From: Promethearchaeota archaeon
GTDB lineage: Archaea; Asgardarchaeota; Heimdallarchaeia; Hodarchaeales; Hodarchaeaceae
DNA: 64,000 bases
Assembly: GCA_048938105.1 (NCBI GenBank)
Contig: JBHLMN010000007.1
Location: 205,383-269,382 of the forward strand
Reading direction: 5' to 3'
Shown: positions 8,349-15,946 of the stretch, piece after piece
Numbering within the stretch: position 1 is the stretch's first letter
Layout of the letters: the number at the start of each line of letters is the position of its first letter
Made by a program: the position numbers and the translations under genes
The notes under the pieces: generated by a model
What the model was told of the DNA's origin: nothing
The model's database searches: none
What the model saw: only the letters and a program-made list of their open reading frames with translations

Positions 8349-9209
8349 CTATCTTTTAGCTCTTAGAAATGTCCCTTTATGATATTCTTCAAAAGCGGTT
8401 TTAATTTCTTCTTGTGTATTCATAACAATAGGACCGTACCACGCAACTGGTTCTTTAATCGGTTTCCCCGAAACCAAAAGAAATCGCACATGTTCATCTT
8501 CTGATGCTGTAATTTGTACCAATTCACCTTCCCTGAAGATTATGAGATGTTCTTTGGAAACTAGTTGTTCTTTATTTGGTTCAAAATAGCCCTTTCCCTC
8601 AAAACAATATGCAAAAACAGTATAATCTTTATTAACTCTGTGTTCAAATGTTGTATTCTCAGGGATGAATACATCAATGTATTCAGGATTAGTTACAATA
8701 TTTTGAACAGGTCCCTTGATACCATTGATTTCTCCAGCTAAGATTCTAATTTTAATCCCATTATTAATCATGATTTCAGGAACCATATCTGCAGGAATAT
8801 CTTGGTAGCGAGGTGGCATCATTTTATTAGTTGCTGGAAGATTAACCCAGAGCTGGAACCCCCATAATAGGCCATCCACTTGTGCTGGCATCTCTGAATG
8901 AATGATACCAGATCCAGCTGTCATCCACTGGATATCTCCACTCTTAATGACACCTTGATTACCAATAGAATCTTGGTGTTCTACTTTTCCTTCAAGCATA
9001 TAAGTAACAGTTTCAATACCCCGATGGGGATGATTAGGAAATCCTGCAATATACTCATCTGGATTGTCAGAATGAAAATCATCAAATAAGAGGAATGGAT
9101 CGAGTATTACTACTTCCCGATGAGCAAATGCACGTTTCAAATGAACACCTGCTCCCTCAATTGTCGGTTTACTCTTGGAAACTCTCCGTATTCTTCTAAT
9201 TTTGTTCAT
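8349..9209 (-). CDS. Pirin family protein
   Basis: DPFLLFD, HPHRGIETVTY, WMTAGSGIIHSE, GPIVMN. Confidence 0.95.
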   Translation of the reverse strand: MNKIRRIRRVSKSKPTIEGAGVHLKRAFAHREVVILDPFLLFDDFHSDNPDEYIAGFPNHPHRGIETVTYMLEGKVEHQDSIGNQGVIKSGDIQWMTAGSGIIHSEMPAQVDGLLWGFQLWVNLPATNKMMPPRYQDIPADMVPEIMINNGIKIRILAGEINGIKGPVQNIVTNPEYIDVFIPENTTFEHRVNKDYTVFAYCFEGKGYFEPNKEQLVSKEHLIIFREGELVQITASEDEHVRFLLVSGKPIKEPVAWYGPIVMNTQEEIKTAFEEYHKGTFLRAKR

Positions 9210-9440: not shown

Positions 9441-10613
9441 ATGAGACCAGATATTTCTTCTTTTCATATCATGATCAAACCGCATAGTTCTATTTGCAAT
9501 CTAAATTGCCAGTATTGTTATTATCTGTCTAAAAAAAGACTTTATCCTAATTCCAATTACCGAATGAATGATAAAACATTGGAAGAATTCATAAAACAGT
9601 ATCTTGAAGCACAAAAAACACCTGTTGTCTCGTTTGGGTGGCAAGGAGGAGAACCAGCATTAATGGGCATAGATTTTTTTGAGAAAGTGATCCATTACCA
9701 AAAGAAATACAATAAGGAGGGAAAAAAAGTCGAGAACACTTTTCAAACCAATGGAACTTTACTCAATGAAGATTGGGGGCGTTTTTTCAAGAAACACAAT
9801 TTCTTAATCGGAATTAGCATTGATGGTCCTCCGAAAATGCATGATGTGTATCGAGTTGATCGAAAAGGGACTCCCACTTTTAACAAAGTGAAATTAGGGC
9901 TTGACATTCTTAAAAAATATGAAGTAGAATACAATATTCTCACCTGTGTCCATTCTGTGAATGTAAATCACCCATTAGAAGTGTATAAGTATTTAAGAGA
10001 CGAATTACAAGTTAATTTTATCCAATTTATTCCTGTAGTTGAACGAAATATTGATGGGAGAGTTTCAGATTTTTCCACAACTGGAAGCCAATATGGTACT
10101 TTTTTACAGACTGTCTTTGATGAATGGGTTAGACATGATGTAGGAATGATTTTTATTCAAATTTTTGAGGTCGCTTTAGCTGCTTGGTTAAATTTACCCC
10201 TAAATTTGTGTACTTTCGCACCAAACTGTGGAAATGCGTTAGCTTTAGAGTACAATGGGGATATCTATGCTTGCGATCATTTTGTTACACCAGAGTACTT
10301 TCGTGGTAATTTATTATCACAATCACTTAAAGAAATCGTAAATTCACTAGATCAAAAGGAATTTGGGTTGAAAAAATCTAGGTTACTCCCTCAAGAATGT
10401 CAGCAATGTGAAGTGAGATTCGTATGTAATGGTGGATGCCCAAAAAACAGGTTTATTTCAACTGAAGAAAGAAACTCTGGATTAAATTATTTATGTGAGG
10501 GTTATAAGACTTTTTTTTCCTACATCGATCCTTATATGAAGTACATGGCAGATCAACTAAAGAGAAATAGACCTGCTACCAATATCATGGAATACTTAAA
10601 AGAGAAATCATAA
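9441..10613 (+). CDS. Anaerobic sulfatase maturase (radical SAM/SPASM, anSME)
   Basis: CNLNCQYCYY, WQGGEP, QTNGTLL, YACDHF, SPASM CQQCEVRFVCNGGCPK; adjacent to a sulfatase. Confidence 0.95.
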   Translation: MRPDISSFHIMIKPHSSICNLNCQYCYYLSKKRLYPNSNYRMNDKTLEEFIKQYLEAQKTPVVSFGWQGGEPALMGIDFFEKVIHYQKKYNKEGKKVENTFQTNGTLLNEDWGRFFKKHNFLIGISIDGPPKMHDVYRVDRKGTPTFNKVKLGLDILKKYEVEYNILTCVHSVNVNHPLEVYKYLRDELQVNFIQFIPVVERNIDGRVSDFSTTGSQYGTFLQTVFDEWVRHDVGMIFIQIFEVALAAWLNLPLNLCTFAPNCGNALALEYNGDIYACDHFVTPEYFRGNLLSQSLKEIVNSLDQKEFGLKKSRLLPQECQQCEVRFVCNGGCPKNRFISTEERNSGLNYLCEGYKTFFSYIDPYMKYMADQLKRNRPATNIMEYLKEKS

Positions 10614-10705
10614 TAAGAAATATTATTAATGTTAAAAATAATACAACCAGTATTATCAACCTAGAAGATGTATTTTCGTCTCAAGTCTCATTAATTTCCA
10701 ATAAG

Positions 10706-12016
10706 ATGAGGAATATGAATCAACCATCCGAATCTAATCCAAATATCTTATTTATCATCACTCATGATACTGGGGATCTTTTTTATGACAAAGGGATAGA
10801 AACACCAAACCTAGATCAATTGGCTCGAACTGGTGTAATGTTTACAAATAATTTTTGCATAGCTCCCCAGTGTTCTCCTTCTCGTGGTAGTATTCTCACT
10901 GGACAAGTGCCACACACACACGGATTAATGGGATTAACAAACTATGGCTGGAATTTGGATTCAAAGATCACAATTGCCAAAATTCTTGCCAAAAACGGCT
11001 ACTCAACGCATTTAATTGGATTACAGCATGAACATGAGGATGCAAAAGAACTCGGTTATCAAAATATCTCTGATCGTAACATCATGCCTTGGGTAGATAA
11101 CGTCGTTCCCCAAGTAAACGAATTCTTAACAAGAGCTAATCAGGGGAAGGTTCCACAACCATTCTATTGTGCCATTGGCTTTTTTGATACCCATAGGCCC
11201 TTCATTTTTCCTGAGGATATTTCTGTTCCTTTCAAAAACGAAATTTTGGTTCCTAGTTTTCTACCAGACACACCTGAAGTGAGAACGGATATTTCAGAAT
11301 TATATTCATCGATTAAAACAGTAGATAGAGGAATTGGACATATCCTTGACATTTTAAAATCGTGTTCTTACTATGAAAATACAATAGTTATTCTTACCGT
11401 TGATCATGGACCAGCTTTTCCACGAGCGAAATGTACTCTGTATGACACAGGAATTCGGACTGCGCTCATTTTCAGCTGGCCAAAAAAGATTAAGCAAGGA
11501 ATGATACGGACTGAATTGATCTCTAACATAGATTTATTACCATCAATCTTAGATATTGTCGATATTCCGATCCCCGATGAAATACAAGGACATAGCTTCA
11601 AAAATCTTCTTTTTAATGAAGAATATAAGGAACAGGAGTGCATTTTTGCAGAATTAACATATCACGATATTGGCTATAATCCTATCAGAGCAGTTAGAAC
11701 AAAAAAATGGAAATATATCAAGAATTTTAAAGCTCTTGACATATTATTCGAAATACCTGAAGATGTGATCGAAAGTCCATCAGGAAAAGCTTGGCTTAGC
11801 AAACATCCTGAATATTACTCCACTAGACCAAACGAAGAGTTGTATGATCTGATGACTGATCCAATGGAAGTAATAAATTTAGCTAATAATCCCCAATATC
11901 AATCTATCAAACAAAAATTAGATAAGAAACTTATGGATTGGTTGAAAAAGACAAATGATCCAATTTTAACGAAGAACTTTATTGAGGACACTTCAAGGAG
12001 AATGAAGATTGAATGA
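10706..12016 (+). CDS. Cys-type sulfatase (N-sulfoglucosamine sulfohydrolase-like)
   Basis: PNILFI, CSPSRGSILTG formylglycine motif, DHG, ELYDL..DP.E..NLA. Confidence 0.93.
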   Translation: MRNMNQPSESNPNILFIITHDTGDLFYDKGIETPNLDQLARTGVMFTNNFCIAPQCSPSRGSILTGQVPHTHGLMGLTNYGWNLDSKITIAKILAKNGYSTHLIGLQHEHEDAKELGYQNISDRNIMPWVDNVVPQVNEFLTRANQGKVPQPFYCAIGFFDTHRPFIFPEDISVPFKNEILVPSFLPDTPEVRTDISELYSSIKTVDRGIGHILDILKSCSYYENTIVILTVDHGPAFPRAKCTLYDTGIRTALIFSWPKKIKQGMIRTELISNIDLLPSILDIVDIPIPDEIQGHSFKNLLFNEEYKEQECIFAELTYHDIGYNPIRAVRTKKWKYIKNFKALDILFEIPEDVIESPSGKAWLSKHPEYYSTRPNEELYDLMTDPMEVINLANNPQYQSIKQKLDKKLMDWLKKTNDPILTKNFIEDTSRRMKIE

Positions 12017-12626
12017 AATTATTTGGGCTACCCCACTTTATTTATTCTTAAAATATTGCAATGAGAGTTCATTAGATAAAGTAATTCTTGATTGCGGTGC
12101 AGGAGGAGAATCTCCTCCATTAGCCCTTTTCTATCAATACGATTACGAAACAAATGGAATTGATATTTCTGATAAAGCTTTAGAGGAATCTCATCTATTT
12201 TGTAAGGAGAATAACATAAATTTAAATATTACAAAAGGAGATATGAGGAAAATTCCGTTTGAAGACGAGTCTATGAGTTTTGTTTATTCTTTAGATTCGA
12301 TTATATTTTTATCAAAAGATGACACTCAAATAGCTATTAAAGAGATTGAAAGAGTCTTGAGAACAGATGGACTGTGTTTTATAAATTTTAAATCGATTGA
12401 TGATGAAGATTACAATAAAGGGGAGCCAATGGGCAATAATGAATTTAAACTTGATAATGAATGGACAGAAGGGGAGATGGTATGCTCTTTCTATGAAGAT
12501 AATGAACCTGATGCTTATTTTGGCAATTTTGAAATTCTCCGCAAAGAAAAAAGGATTGTAGATTGTTTTTGTATTGAGAATGGTCACAGAATTGGGTATA
12601 TTGATTATATTGGTAGAAAAAAATAA
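12009..12626 (+). CDS. Class I SAM-dependent methyltransferase
   Basis: ILDCGAGG, GIDIS, GDMRKIPFEDES, EIERVL. Confidence 0.9.
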   Translation: MNEIIWATPLYLFLKYCNESSLDKVILDCGAGGESPPLALFYQYDYETNGIDISDKALEESHLFCKENNINLNITKGDMRKIPFEDESMSFVYSLDSIIFLSKDDTQIAIKEIERVLRTDGLCFINFKSIDDEDYNKGEPMGNNEFKLDNEWTEGEMVCSFYEDNEPDAYFGNFEILRKEKRIVDCFCIENGHRIGYIDYIGRKK

Positions 12627-12773
12627 TCTATCGTTCAATCACTCATTTTCCCTTTCATAACTTATTTAAAAAGAAATTAAAGGATTTTTAGGGGAAAGAT
12701 TCAATTCGGGAAGATTTAAAAAATTCTTTCTCTATAATTACATATTTTCAGGAAGAAAAGTGGTGACAATAGA

Positions 12774-13394
12774 ATGAAAACAAATCAAATTATTAGAATA
12801 ATAATTCCTTTGGTACTCCTTTTAGGGGCTGCCACTACCTTTTTTGTGGCAGTTCTGGGCAACCAACAGGCAAATACCTCAGCAGAGGATATACAAAAGG
12901 CAAATACAACCACAAGTAGTTTTATTATGTACCTATATGTAGAAGGCATCCCTGGAGAAGTTATAGAACAAGATCATGAAGAATGGATTGAAGTACTCGC
13001 TTATTCCCATAATATACAAACCCCCTATAATGTTGGCACAGGACAAACTGCTGGAAGCGTAGAGAACGCCCCCCTCCGAATCACTAAGATGGTAGATAAG
13101 GCATCTCCCAAATTATACCAAGCTTGTTATACTGGAAGTGTGAAACCTTTAGTTGAACTAGATTTCTGCATGACTAATACTGCCCAAGATGTGTTTTACA
13201 ACATTGAACTTGAAAATGCCAAAATTGTGTCCGTCCAAGACTTTGGAGTATTATCAGGAGACTATCCAACAGAAACAGTTTCATTCACTTACGAAAGATT
13301 CAAATGGACATATATAGAGTACGATGCTCAGGGACAACCCAAAGGACCTATAGAATCAGGTTGGATCTATTGGAGTGACGAAACCCCTATTTAA
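12774..13394 (+). CDS. hcp: Hcp (type VI secretion tube protein)-like protein with an N-terminal signal/anchor
   Basis: MYLYVEGIPGE...HEEWIEVLAYSH...ITKMVDKASPKLYQAC...IELENAKIVSV...PTETVSFTYERFKWTY...G...GW follows the Hcp1 consensus; extra hydrophobic N-terminus. Confidence 0.88.
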   Translation: MKTNQIIRIIIPLVLLLGAATTFFVAVLGNQQANTSAEDIQKANTTTSSFIMYLYVEGIPGEVIEQDHEEWIEVLAYSHNIQTPYNVGTGQTAGSVENAPLRITKMVDKASPKLYQACYTGSVKPLVELDFCMTNTAQDVFYNIELENAKIVSVQDFGVLSGDYPTETVSFTYERFKWTYIEYDAQGQPKGPIESGWIYWSDETPI

Positions 13395-13429
13395 CCCTTA
13401 CAAACAAATTATATAGCTGTTGAATTACA

Positions 13430-14170
13430 ATGAAAATGTCTAAGACATTTTTAATTCCCTTACTCCTATTGATTTTAGCCATTGGTACCTTTCCTACACT
13501 AGCTTTCGCAAATACTTCCAATGAAGAATATATTGAAGTTCACCAAGTGATTCAGAATGGACCTAATATATTGATTGAATTAGATTATGACTTGAGTTCA
13601 ACTTCTTTACTTGATACTAATGAATCATTGGCAGTCTTAGTAATATTTAGTGATTCTACAAACGAGGATACTCTCACCATTCAAGCAGCGATGTTATTCT
13701 TTCACACGGATGACAATCAATTTCTCCTTTTTTGGATGCTTGGAGACCCCTTTAAACAAGCCCAAAACTGGCAGGAAGGTACTGAAAATGAGCACTTTCA
13801 GACTGATGGTGACCAATTAACACTCACTTTCATCGAATTCGTAGGTGCTCAGGAACCAGAGATTACAGTCTCAGTATATGCCAGGATTACCTCTAGTGAA
13901 ATAAATGCCTATACGACCGATTTTCGAATAGTTCTAGATCAATTCATTGAGGAATTGACAACACAAACTACATCTGAGGAGACTTCTGGCCCCCTGACTA
14001 CAGGAAAAACAACTTCATCAACTACAGGAACAGGAAAAACAGAAAGAACCACATCTACAAAAGAATCATCTCAAACAAAAACGGATATTGCATCAGGATT
14101 CACTATCCTCTCAATTTTTGGTATTCTCCTTTCAGTGGTCATCATAAAAAGATTTACTCGGAAAAATTAA
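13430..14170 (+). CDS. Secreted, C-terminally anchored surface protein
   Basis: Signal peptide, acidic beta-rich domain, Thr/Ser-rich linker, SGF + TM + KRFTRKN tail (PGF-CTERM-like). Confidence 0.8.
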   Translation: MKMSKTFLIPLLLLILAIGTFPTLAFANTSNEEYIEVHQVIQNGPNILIELDYDLSSTSLLDTNESLAVLVIFSDSTNEDTLTIQAAMLFFHTDDNQFLLFWMLGDPFKQAQNWQEGTENEHFQTDGDQLTLTFIEFVGAQEPEITVSVYARITSSEINAYTTDFRIVLDQFIEELTTQTTSEETSGPLTTGKTTSSTTGTGKTERTTSTKESSQTKTDIASGFTILSIFGILLSVVIIKRFTRKN

Positions 14171-14281: not shown

Positions 14282-14908
14282 TTATAAAGTCTGAATTTTC
14301 GTTCCAATATAACTAATTTCACCCAATTTAAGTTGAATTTCTCCTTCATTATATCTATAAATCACTCTATTTTCTTTATGAAGGAGCTCAAAATTTTTAA
14401 AATATGCATCAGCCTCATTAATGGTATGAAAAGAATGGAGTGCTGTTTCATTCTCACCTATGGGCAATAAATATTCTCCCTCACCGATTTTTTCACCTCG
14501 TTCACCGATCTCTGAATCTTCCGACATAAAATTGACATAGCATAATCCATTTATTACCAAGACTCTTTCGATTTCTTTCATTGCAATAGAAATATCTTTT
14601 TTCGATAGATGCATGATTGTATTATATGAATAAACAAAGGAAAAACTTTCATCATCAAAATTTAAATCTCTCATATCACCTATCTTAATATTTAGGTCAA
14701 GATTATACTTATCACAGAAATCTTTTGTGTTCTTGATTGCTTGTTCACTAACATCTATTCCAAAGGTTTTATAACCATTTCTGTAAAACAAGTAAAGAGG
14801 GGACTCCCTTCCACCAGCTCCACAATCAAGTACTTTTTTTTCTAGGTTTGTTTTGTTGCATAATCGTAAAAACTCATATAAGGGAGTTGCACGAGAAATA
14901 AATTCCAA
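14282..14908 (-). CDS. Class I SAM-dependent methyltransferase (paralog of 12009-12626)
   Basis: ATPLY..L..CN, VLDCGAGG, GDMR, FDDESFSFVYS. Confidence 0.9.
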   Translation of the reverse strand: MEFISRATPLYEFLRLCNKTNLEKKVLDCGAGGRESPLYLFYRNGYKTFGIDVSEQAIKNTKDFCDKYNLDLNIKIGDMRDLNFDDESFSFVYSYNTIMHLSKKDISIAMKEIERVLVINGLCYVNFMSEDSEIGERGEKIGEGEYLLPIGENETALHSFHTINEADAYFKNFELLHKENRVIYRYNEGEIQLKLGEISYIGTKIQTL

Positions 14909-14935: not shown

Positions 14936-15946
14936 TTACTTCTCTACAGTGTCTACAACTTCCTGTGGTAAATGCAAAGCAAACTTACAAACTGAGTCCC
15001 CTTTAAGCACTGATTTTACTAATTCGACTTTCACGGATTGATCTAAAACCGCCTCCCAGAAGTTCTTGTAATACCCTGCACTACAATTACAAAATATCGG
15101 ATCAACAGGTTGATCTTCCTCCAAAAGTGCTTCTCTCACCCAAGGACAGTGACAATACCAATACTTCTTTTTCTTATCATCTGTTTCTTTAAGAAATTGC
15201 TTTGTCATATAAGGGATCTTAATCATAATGACTTTATTTCCTTCTCGAATCCCCGCTTCAGTCATTCCTTGTTGACTCTTGACATATTGAAGGACTTCCT
15301 CGTCAATCTCTTGAGTAAAGAAAAGAGAATTTTCTTGGAAGTGTTTTGTTAAAGTGTTAATAAAATCTTGGCGTTGAATTTCCAAGAATTCGTCGATGCT
15401 TTTTGTTTTTAGATATTTTTTTCTTGCTGATTCATAAGATTGTGGATATTTGTCCCTTAATCCGTGTGCAAGGAATGCAGTGCACTTTTCATGATCAACT
15501 TTAGCGTGAAATCTCTCAATCACCTTTCTAGTAATTTCAGGTTTCTTTTTGGGATGAAAACCTAATGGTGGAACTTCAATATCTTCAAAAATTTCATTTC
15601 TTACTTCTTCACCGAATTCCTCTACTAATCGTTTTGAGAAATTTACCATTACTTCGCTTCCATCAATGTTCTCCATTGCAGCAATAATTAATTGGTTATT
15701 CTTCTTGAAATAGCCATATCGGAGAAGATTAACATAGTTATCGAAAGAATTCTTTTTATTCTCTATTAAATAGGCAGAAAAATCATGAAGATCGTTATAT
15801 GTTGCATCCTCAACTGATTTGTTGGATTTAGAAAGAAAATCATCAAACTCACTAACGATATTAATAGCAGCAGGTATTATATCAATAGCAATATTTCGTT
15901 CCTGTAAATACTCCTGCAAATATTCCTTGAAACCGTCCTGTTCCAT
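14936..15946 (-). CDS. DUF6144/V4R-like protein with an N-terminal helical extension
   Basis: YCHCPW, FCNCSAGYYKNFWE, SVLKGDSVCKF resemble 7684-8262. Confidence 0.7.
   Translation of the reverse strand: MEQDGFKEYLQEYLQERNIAIDIIPAAINIVSEFDDFLSKSNKSVEDATYNDLHDFSAYLIENKKNSFDNYVNLLRYGYFKKNNQLIIAAMENIDGSEVMVNFSKRLVEEFGEEVRNEIFEDIEVPPLGFHPKKKPEITRKVIERFHAKVDHEKCTAFLAHGLRDKYPQSYESARKKYLKTKSIDEFLEIQRQDFINTLTKHFQENSLFFTQEIDEEVLQYVKSQQGMTEAGIREGNKVIMIKIPYMTKQFLKETDDKKKKYWYCHCPWVREALLEEDQPVDPIFCNCSAGYYKNFWEAVLDQSVKVELVKSVLKGDSVCKFALHLPQEVVDTVEK

Follow-up and report, generated by a model that had tools for sequence, protein, structure and literature searches.

What role might a type VI secretion system (T6SS) tube protein have in an archaeon that would meet it outside the cell? 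Canonical Hcp (TssD) is made without a signal peptide, forms hexameric rings that stack into tubes, and exits through the T6SS itself. The locus examined here, at 12,774 to 14,170 of a 64,000-nucleotide stretch from a Promethearchaeota archaeon of the Hodarchaeaceae (GenBank contig JBHLMN010000007.1, our C42, positions 205383–269382; ‘the window’ from here on), encodes an Hcp homologue that carries an N-terminal leader, followed directly by a gene for a surface protein that we call the ‘partner’ (Table 1). The window belongs to an assembly of 5.85 Mb in 65 contigs, 99% complete and with 7% contamination. In the sections below we describe the two proteins, their conservation as a pair across Asgard archaea, and a genome in which we find no contractile machinery; together these lead us to propose that the two-gene operon is probably a T6SS-independent cell-surface module, in which an exported Hcp ring would act with its anchored partner. 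The Hcp fold and the anchoring system are already known; what is new is their exported, partner-coupled and T6SS-free use.

Results

An Hcp homologue with a conserved leader

The upstream open reading frame (ORF) of the pair encodes a genuine full-length Hcp homologue. Residues 53–180 match the T6SS_HCP profile PF05638 from end to end (profile positions 1–129 of 129; 119 bits, where 23.5 is the cut-off; E = 2.1e-34), in agreement with an initial annotation made from the letters of the window, which had seen the Hcp1 consensus along residues ~52–206 and had named this profile as the check to make; the NCBIfam model for TssD, TIGR03344, is matched at 95.3 bits (cut-off 58.9). An AlphaFold2 model built on 18 orthologues (mb34adab56621) has mean confidence values, in blocks of ten residues, that lie mostly between 70 and 93 across residues 51–200, with the loop at 82–96 falling below 50. 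Comparison of this model with solved structures by Foldseek retrieves 4w64 (Hcp1; E = 5.3e-14, 32% identity) together with 7fcf, 3eaa and 1y12, all four at a probability of 1.00 and with E-values from 5e-14 to 5e-12; two engineered Hcp1 fusions, 4ksr (GspE-Hcp1) and 7o42 (TrwK-Hcp1), are also among the fold matches. The archaeal protein therefore has the same full-length domain and β-barrel as the Hcp/TssD proteins of bacterial T6SS (4W64 from A. baumannii; 1Y12, P. aeruginosa Hcp1; 7FCF; 3EAA), at identities of 24–33%.

In contrast to a T6SS tube component, which has no signal peptide, the archaeal protein adds a conserved N-terminal export leader, translated from M1, and a linker. The leader opens with MKTNQIIR (residues 1–8, including K2 and R8) and continues into a hydrophobic stretch, for which the Kyte-Doolittle 19-residue mean peaks at 2.57 from residue 9 onwards and in which P12 and G18 are invariant; the linker that follows bears two sequons, N34 (NTS) and N44 (NTT), and two candidate signal-peptidase sites, A-N-T↓S and T-S-A↓E (the arrow marking the point of cleavage). 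The MKTNQIIR start, the hydrophobic helix and the two linker sequons had been described in the initial annotation and are all present, the helix being 21 residues long. Mean pairwise identity among the 18 orthologues is 67% for residues 1–29 and 55% for the Hcp domain, and is lowest, at 42%, in the linker; N34-x-S/T is found in 14 of the 18, with the remaining four keeping V/A-x-A↓S and no Asn. From the positions of K2 and R8, the positive-inside rule predicts that the Hcp domain faces outwards (N-in/C-out). An archaeal type IV pilin-like (class III) signal, in which a [K/R]-[G/A/S] prepilin-peptidase site lies directly ahead of the hydrophobic stretch, was considered for the leader and rejected; the window reads ...QIIR-IIIPLV, and there is no G, A or S at −1 in any orthologue.

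The initial annotation had allowed for a start at an internal methionine, Met52, which would remove the leader. Comparison of the orthologues indicates instead that the leader is made and that translation begins at M1, because Met52 is not conserved (it is Ala in many orthologues), the leader is the best conserved part of the protein, and a GGTGA sequence stands before M1; the codon changes point the same way. Codons that differ within positions 1–33 of eight orthologous Hcp genes comprise 258 synonymous (47%) and 293 nonsynonymous cases, a synonymous share far above that of unconstrained DNA, and the leader is therefore translated and under selection. Further upstream, TTTAAAAAATTC and ACATATTTTCA recur, together with GGTGA and at equal spacing, ahead of six to eight orthologous Hcp genes; these promoter-like motifs are candidates for an archaeal TATA/BRE element and a Shine-Dalgarno site. 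A scan for promoters and terminators of the bacterial type returned chance-level results.

Absence of contractile injection machinery

The window’s Hcp is the only one in its genome. Profile searches of this genome (99% complete), each positive in its control genomes, found no VipA/TssB, VipB/TssC, Phage_GPD/VgrG, Phage_sheath_1 (PF04984), GPW_gp25 (PF04965) or PAAR, and TssC was found in 0 of the 399 Asgard genomes searched. Neither the set of components that identifies a T6SS (TssB/TssC, VgrG, PAAR and a gp25-like TssE) nor that of an extracellular contractile injection system (eCIS) or phage tail (a phage-type sheath and gp25) is present in the genome. The description of this Hcp as an orphan, originally made for the window, can thus be extended to the whole genome, where the six core families are absent and no complete T6SS or eCIS lies elsewhere. 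In comparison with the bacterial Hcp/TssD systems, then, the archaeal genome is without genes for sheath, baseplate, spike or membrane complex, and the host is an archaeon with a single membrane.

The Hcp-partner pair across Asgard archaea

Loci with Hcp relatives were gathered by a related-locus search (L002–L007) and a profile search over the 399 Asgard genomes; the latter found relatives in 25 of the 399, among them 16 of the 20 others in the window’s genus-level group. A partner homologue follows on the same strand, at −22 to +58 bp, in 27 of the 30 Asgard Hcp loci. The three exceptions (L033, L034 and L037) represent one other Hcp family, with a leader and no partner, and two of the three fall in a different leader-bearing clade of the Hcp tree.

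In that tree the partner-bearing Hcps form one group (68 rows, local support 91), made up of a subgroup of 49 rows that includes the window and another of 19 rows at support 98, which we refer to as the window’s subfamily and subfamily II. Partners from both subgroups match the profile of the window’s partner family (E = 1e-96 to 5e-5), and a single change is enough to divide the partner tree according to Hcp subfamily, on a branch that is itself weakly supported. Distances among Hcps and among partners are correlated (Mantel r 0.76, a value reached in 0 of 2000 permutations), as would be expected for co-inherited genes, and from this we conclude that the pairs never swapped. In several genomes both subfamilies are represented, by one pair each. 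The genes that flank the pair differ between lineages, with no phage genes flanking it in any of them, and the partner family is found only in records labelled as Asgard, on contigs whose lengths agree with those of the Hcp matches. On this comparative evidence Hcp and partner form a unit, co-inherited and adjacent, and there are two old subfamilies, each of which has kept its own partner. The coupling of Hcp to the anchored protein downstream, suggested in the initial annotation, is thereby upheld by the adjacency and by the matched trees, with both the pair and the leader conserved across Asgard archaea.

The pair is also carried by two chromosome-scale Heimdall/Hod records, CP070695.1 (4.94 Mb) and CP070760.1 (3.16 Mb), so that contamination is not the explanation for its presence; the Asgard host presumed for the window fits the names of the closest loci, Hodarchaeota or Heimdallarchaeota, with these two records among them, and the heimdallarchaeosortases that the genome encodes. 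It is found, too, in the cultured strain Ca. Lokiarchaeum ossiferum B-35, as NEF87_000442 (Hcp) and NEF87_000443 (partner; L038:1417-2758), for which the public names are ‘Hcp/TssD’ or ‘hypothetical’, depending on source, and ‘hypothetical’, respectively; and in Ca. Harpocratesius repetitus (L032:1465-2831), where the public call for Hcp is a protein of 163 amino acids (aa) starting from an internal Met, as compared to a leader-bearing ORF of 194 aa. Prediction of a 1:1 complex between Hcp residues 45–206 and partner residues 28–186 gave a score of 0.04, set beside a mark of 0.32, and speaks neither for nor against binding. A search of the literature returned no paper linking Hcp or TssD with Asgard archaea, or Hcp with Lokiarchaeum ossiferum.

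The partner: a conserved head on a stalk

The partner begins with a signal peptide, MKMSKTFLIPLLLLILAIGTFPTLAFA/NTS..., and ends in ASGFTILSIFGILLSVVIIKRFTRKN, which contains a tripartite tail, SGF-TILSIFGILLSVVII-KRFTRKN, whose middle element is a transmembrane (TM) stretch. Every feature reported for it at the outset can be recovered: it lies 35 bp downstream of Hcp on the same strand, is predicted to be secreted, and has both a Thr-rich stalk and an SGF-TM-basic anchor. In about one third of its orthologues a Cys directly follows the signal peptide’s hydrophobic part (for example ...FALVGC↓TLS), in a lipobox-like setting; the window has AFA↓N at this position.

Between signal peptide and stalk there is a conserved head of ~145 aa, in which AlphaFold2 places a β-sandwich at residues 37–155. 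Its family-wide motif, [FWY]WMLGDP...W..G...H, comprises W102, W114, G117 and H122, of which the aromatic character of W102 and the identities of the other three are conserved across both partner subfamilies; such conservation fits a binding patch rather than a catalytic site.

Searches for relatives of known identity returned little. A Pfam family is matched in 0 of 26 members, save for a weak match of DUF6520 to the signal peptide; no sequence relative was found among solved structures, Foldseek of the model gave nothing at E ≤ 0.001, and neighbours in the ESM Atlas all have a TM-score below 0.5. Using VIA-align, the head is closest to the C-terminal domain of glucodextranase (1ulv; Z 6.7) and a CBM9 domain (1i82; Z 5.9), followed by the gamma subunit of ethylbenzene dehydrogenase (EbdC; 2IVF_C) and the cytochrome domain of cellobiose dehydrogenase (CDH; 1D7C), both at Z 5.3. 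Ligand-binding sandwiches of the DOMON/CBM9-like kind (1I82, 1D7C, 2IVF_C) are its best structural neighbours (Z 5.3–5.9 over 121–131 residues), and the partner has a conserved patch of aromatic residues and His; with Z below 8 and no relation in sequence, the likeness is a lead and may just be that of a common sandwich. A haem-binding DOMON domain was considered and rejected, as the Met/His pair of CDH has no counterpart conserved in both subfamilies (the Met/His candidates are not conserved in subfamily II).

Putative anchoring by a heimdallarchaeosortase

The motif ahead of the TM stretch is PGF in most partner orthologues and SGF in the window. Against the Heimdall-CTERM model NF045529, which spans 26 positions only and has a cut-off of 24 bits, the window’s tail scores 15.5 bits and that of the orthologue at L003 21.6 bits. 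The genome encodes two heimdallarchaeosortases (251.8 and 261.4 bits with NF045528; cut-off 130), which were found by TIGR04125 and NF045528; the exosortase family PF09721 gave a 23-bit fragment only. Across the genome, the C-termini of about 30 further ORFs show a Thr-rich region followed by PGF, a TM stretch and RRK-type residues, among them large subtilase- and adhesin-like proteins.

The partner therefore resembles known archaeosortase substrates (PGF-CTERM/ArtA of Haloferax; Heimdall-CTERM) in its Sec signal, Thr-rich region and tripartite C-terminus, and its genome resembles archaeosortase systems in having cognate sortases, two in number, and ~30 similar tails; it differs in having SGF instead of PGF and in falling short of the NF045529 cut-off. 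In Haloferax, tails of this kind are cleaved by the related archaeosortase A, which leaves the protein attached to a lipid anchor (PMC6098224); by analogy, the partner would be cleaved and lipid-anchored by a heimdallarchaeosortase. We found no paper on heimdallarchaeosortases, and no experimental demonstration of this processing.

Cleavage of the leader

Every Asgard family member of Hcp carries a leader, and on balance we lean towards its being cleaved. The leaders of subfamily II are short, with textbook sites of the AXA type (VQA↓V, VQS↓T, VLG↓V, VIA↓L, ATA↓S, VNA↓E and ASA↓S). In the window’s subfamily the hydrophobic helix is followed by a conserved pattern, [V/A/I]-x-[A/T]↓[S/T], that is retained in the four orthologues without Asn and, in the absence of the Ser/Thr, also in L040; the conserved N34 ‘sequon’ consequently reads equally well as a signal-peptidase site (V-N-A↓S).

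Leader-bearing and multi-domain Hcps beyond Asgard archaea

Of 1.84 billion cluster representatives, 13,066 were matched in a profile search, and the counts that follow refer to the best 150 of these. Single-domain Hcps number 96; 66 of them bear a leader or lipobox at the N-terminus, and 27 are of the classical kind. The contrast originally drawn between this protein and the leaderless canonical Hcp therefore holds in one respect, the leader being real, and has to be toned down in another, since a leader is not unusual among its single-domain relatives. In many of the non-Asgard examples, among P0112–P0218, the signal peptide or lipobox directly precedes the first Hcp strand (...AQA↓AVDMFIKIEGIDGES; ...LLAAC↓DG). 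Neighbours of the Hcp in the ESM Atlas include clusters of ~195 aa labelled Promethearchaeota, Nitrososphaerota and Actinomycetota, which we regard as leads only.

Another 27 of the 150 each join exactly six contiguous Hcp domains in one chain (median length 1312 aa, with ~25-aa linkers; for example P0076, P0072, P0073 and P0079); P0076, at 1068 aa, has six PF05638 stretches and scores 649 bits. These chains may be covalent pseudo-hexameric Hcp rings, and their existence argues for the closed hexameric ring as the working unit in exported relatives. Eleven of the 27 start with an LExRxLL-like motif, and three-domain Hcps with an N-terminal helix also occur (P0088, P0104). We found no paper on tandem or six-domain Hcps.

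Judged by these relatives, the Asgard pair represents a defined branch within a broad and undescribed class of leader-bearing Hcps. As in the Asgard Hcps, the Hcp domain of the metagenomic proteins is preceded by a signal peptide or lipobox; the Asgard clade differs in having its own partner gene, the others having been compared as proteins. Howard et al. 2021 left Hcps with PEP-CTERM signals out of their survey (PMC8262886), so that exported Hcps have been seen but not studied.

Neighbouring genes in the window

Two paralogous genes for class I SAM-methyltransferases, 12009-12626 (+) and 14282-14908 (−), flank the pair in inverted orientation, their products being 49% identical; at the closest orthologous locus (L002) there is the downstream copy only. 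A radical-SAM/SPASM protein resembling anaerobic sulfatase maturases lies directly before a sulfatase (PF00884 and SGSH_C) within 9441-12016 (+). This sulfatase pair and the upstream methyltransferase are situated between an ORF of 286 aa (8349-9209) and the Hcp gene; at L002 the orthologue of that ORF is directly upstream of Hcp. Beyond the downstream methyltransferase, 14936-15946 (−) encodes a protein of 336 aa with a C-terminal match to DUF6144 (31 bits) and weak N-terminal matches of the phage-integrase SAM-like kind.

Table 1. Coordinates of the Hcp-partner locus and of the two sortase genes. Positions are those of the window, unless a contig or locus is given; residue numbers refer to the respective protein.
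Feature	Position	Strand	Details	Basis
Conserved upstream region	12715..12766	+	TTTAAAAAATTC (12715-12726), ACATATTTTCA (12740-12750), GGTGA (12762-12766, 7 nt before ATG)	sequence and orthologues
Hcp ORF	12774-13394	+	206 aa	
Hcp leader	12774..12860	+	basic n-region (residues 1-8) and 21-residue hydrophobic stretch (9-29)	hydrophobicity, conservation
Hcp linker	12861..12929	+	residues 30-52, GNQQANTSAEDIQKANTTTSSFI	sequence and orthologue alignment
Hcp (TssD) β-barrel domain	12930..13394	+	residues 53-206, and stop codon	PF05638, TIGR03344, AlphaFold2 model, Foldseek
Partner ORF	13430-14170	+	246 aa; starts 35 bp past the Hcp stop codon	
Partner signal peptide	13430..13510	+	residues 1-27, probable cleavage AFA↓NTS	sequence; AlphaFold2 helix 5-18
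Partner globular domain	13520..13960	+	about residues 31-177, β-sandwich then two short helices	orthologue alignment, AlphaFold2
Partner Thr/Ser-rich stalk	13961..14092	+	about residues 178-221; length and sequence vary among orthologues	predicted local distance difference test (pLDDT) <50
Partner C-terminal sorting signal	14093..14170	+	SGF, TM and KRFTRKN (Heimdall-CTERM-like), and stop codon	sequence, NF045529
Heimdallarchaeosortase gene	G000:C64:57995-58747 (L012:1141-1893)	+		NF045528
Heimdallarchaeosortase gene	G000:C38:34226-34999 (L013:1444-2217)	−		NF045528

Discussion

The steps that we infer for the proposed module—export, ring formation, leader cleavage, contact between Hcp and partner, and function—would run as follows. 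Hcp would be exported by Sec via its N-terminal leader and, once outside the cell, would most likely form the hexameric ring typical of its fold, as homology and the six-domain single-chain relatives suggest. The partner, likewise exported by Sec, would display its β-sandwich head atop a flexible Thr-rich stalk that is probably glycosylated, with processing of the SGF/PGF-TM-basic signal by a heimdallarchaeosortase leaving it anchored to the membrane. From there it may serve as an anchor or cap, holding or plugging the Hcp ring at the surface; alternatively, the ring might be held by its own leader. The resulting ring-on-stalk fitting would bind a ligand, a neighbouring cell or cargo, rather than inject. 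Hcp rings of T6SS carry cargo of 10–30 kDa in their lumen (PMC8262886), a range within which the partner head, at ~16 kDa, falls. In having a small, cargo-sized neighbour the archaeal locus is reminiscent of the Hcp-effector pairs of T6SS (PMC8262886); it differs in that the fixed partner is an anchored surface protein and not a toxin with an immunity gene.

We also entertain, more tentatively, a fuller version of this proposal: that Asgard archaea, cultured Ca. Lokiarchaeum ossiferum among them, use the pair to build a previously unseen surface fitting, in which a hexameric ring of exported Hcp is docked on a stalked, sortase-anchored protein or plugged by it, and that this is a branch of a large, unrecognised class of Sec-exported Hcp rings in prokaryotes without a T6SS, the six-domain chains included. 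The initial annotation had thought of a tube protein repurposed as an exported or tethered ring, nanotube or surface structure; an exported surface Hcp with an anchored neighbour is retained from that idea, and for a nanotube of stacked rings we find nothing in support.

Several observations weigh against the proposal of an exported ring acting with an anchored partner. The partner head is well modelled (pLDDT 77–89 over residues 31–170) in one of five AlphaFold2 models, the other four being poor, and its fold matches are weak, all with Z below 8, so that a binding role is a guess. The leader-bearing Hcps of L033, L034 and L037 have no partner, and an exported Hcp can therefore work without one. 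The helix of the leader is long, with conservation above that usual for signal peptides; this favours retention, and the unusually high conservation of the leader in the window’s subfamily accords with a membrane helix that stays in place no less than with a signal that is removed.

These last points lead to the most serious alternative, albeit one that we rate as doubtful, in which the leader is an uncleaved signal anchor: six TM helices, possibly as a helix bundle, would hold the ring flat against the membrane, and the partner would then be a neighbouring co-receptor or cargo instead of the tether. The 21-residue hydrophobic stretch, its invariant P12 and G18, and its higher identity relative to the Hcp domain (67% versus 55%) all speak for such an arrangement, as does the window’s best cleavage motif, which has Thr at −1 (A-N-T↓S) and is a poor site. 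The Hcp1 fusions 4ksr and 7o42, in which we take the fused protein to be joined to the N-terminus of Hcp1, add to this by implying that one face of the ring has room for six extensions at the N-terminus. Short, classic cleavable leaders or lipoboxes, however, are present in subfamily II and in most of the relatives outside Asgard archaea, and the post-helix [V/A]-x-[A/T]↓[S/T/E], kept even where Asn is lost, is the signal-peptidase rule. A tethered ring aside, exported Hcp might stack outside the cell as a tube or filament, giving a non-contractile appendage whose base or cap would be the partner. Rings do stack inside T6SS sheaths, and the partner is membrane-anchored on a stalk; yet tube assembly in the T6SS needs a VgrG base and a sheath (PMC8262886), for which this genome has no genes, the module consists of two genes only, and the six-domain chains point to closed rings as the unit. 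We consider a stacked tube improbable.

Less probable again is that Hcp and the anchored protein are mere neighbours, Hcp being secreted in soluble form with a role of its own (as carrier or decoy, for instance) and the anchored protein unrelated to it. Leader-bearing Hcps without a partner are on record at L033, L034 and L037 and, going by number, probably among many of the 66 metagenomic relatives; mere proximity is, however, difficult to reconcile with adjacency at 27 of the 30 loci, which persists where Hcp identity has dropped to about 30% and where the flanks are unrelated, with pairs that are matched in both subfamilies without swapping, or with a partner family found in Asgard records only. 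Hcp is homologous to phage tail tube proteins, and one might thus imagine it as the tube protein, or a remnant, of a cryptic contractile or phage-tail-like system that escapes hidden Markov models. To this we give very little credence: the genome, 99% complete, has none of the six core families and TssC is missing from all 399 Asgard genomes, a cytoplasmic tube protein would not bear a conserved export leader, no lineage has phage genes flanking the pair, and purifying selection speaks against a remnant. We accordingly keep to the proposal of an exported ring with an anchored partner as our working model.

Asgard archaea are the closest prokaryotic relatives of eukaryotes, and their cell surface is poorly understood. 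What we describe is a conserved, exported Hcp in single-membrane organisms without contractile machinery, tied to one partner without a clear match to a fold family. For P. syntrophicum, the proteome did not reveal an S-layer protein (PMC11284389). A defined two-protein module offers a concrete target for the study of surface contacts between Asgard archaea and their partner cells, and its presence in a cultured strain makes localisation, imaging and pull-downs possible. For these genes the annotation ‘Type VI secretion system tube protein’ is misleading, and at least one public call drops the leader. If the reading of the pair as a surface fitting is true, the tube fold of the T6SS would have a second, non-injecting life at cell surfaces.

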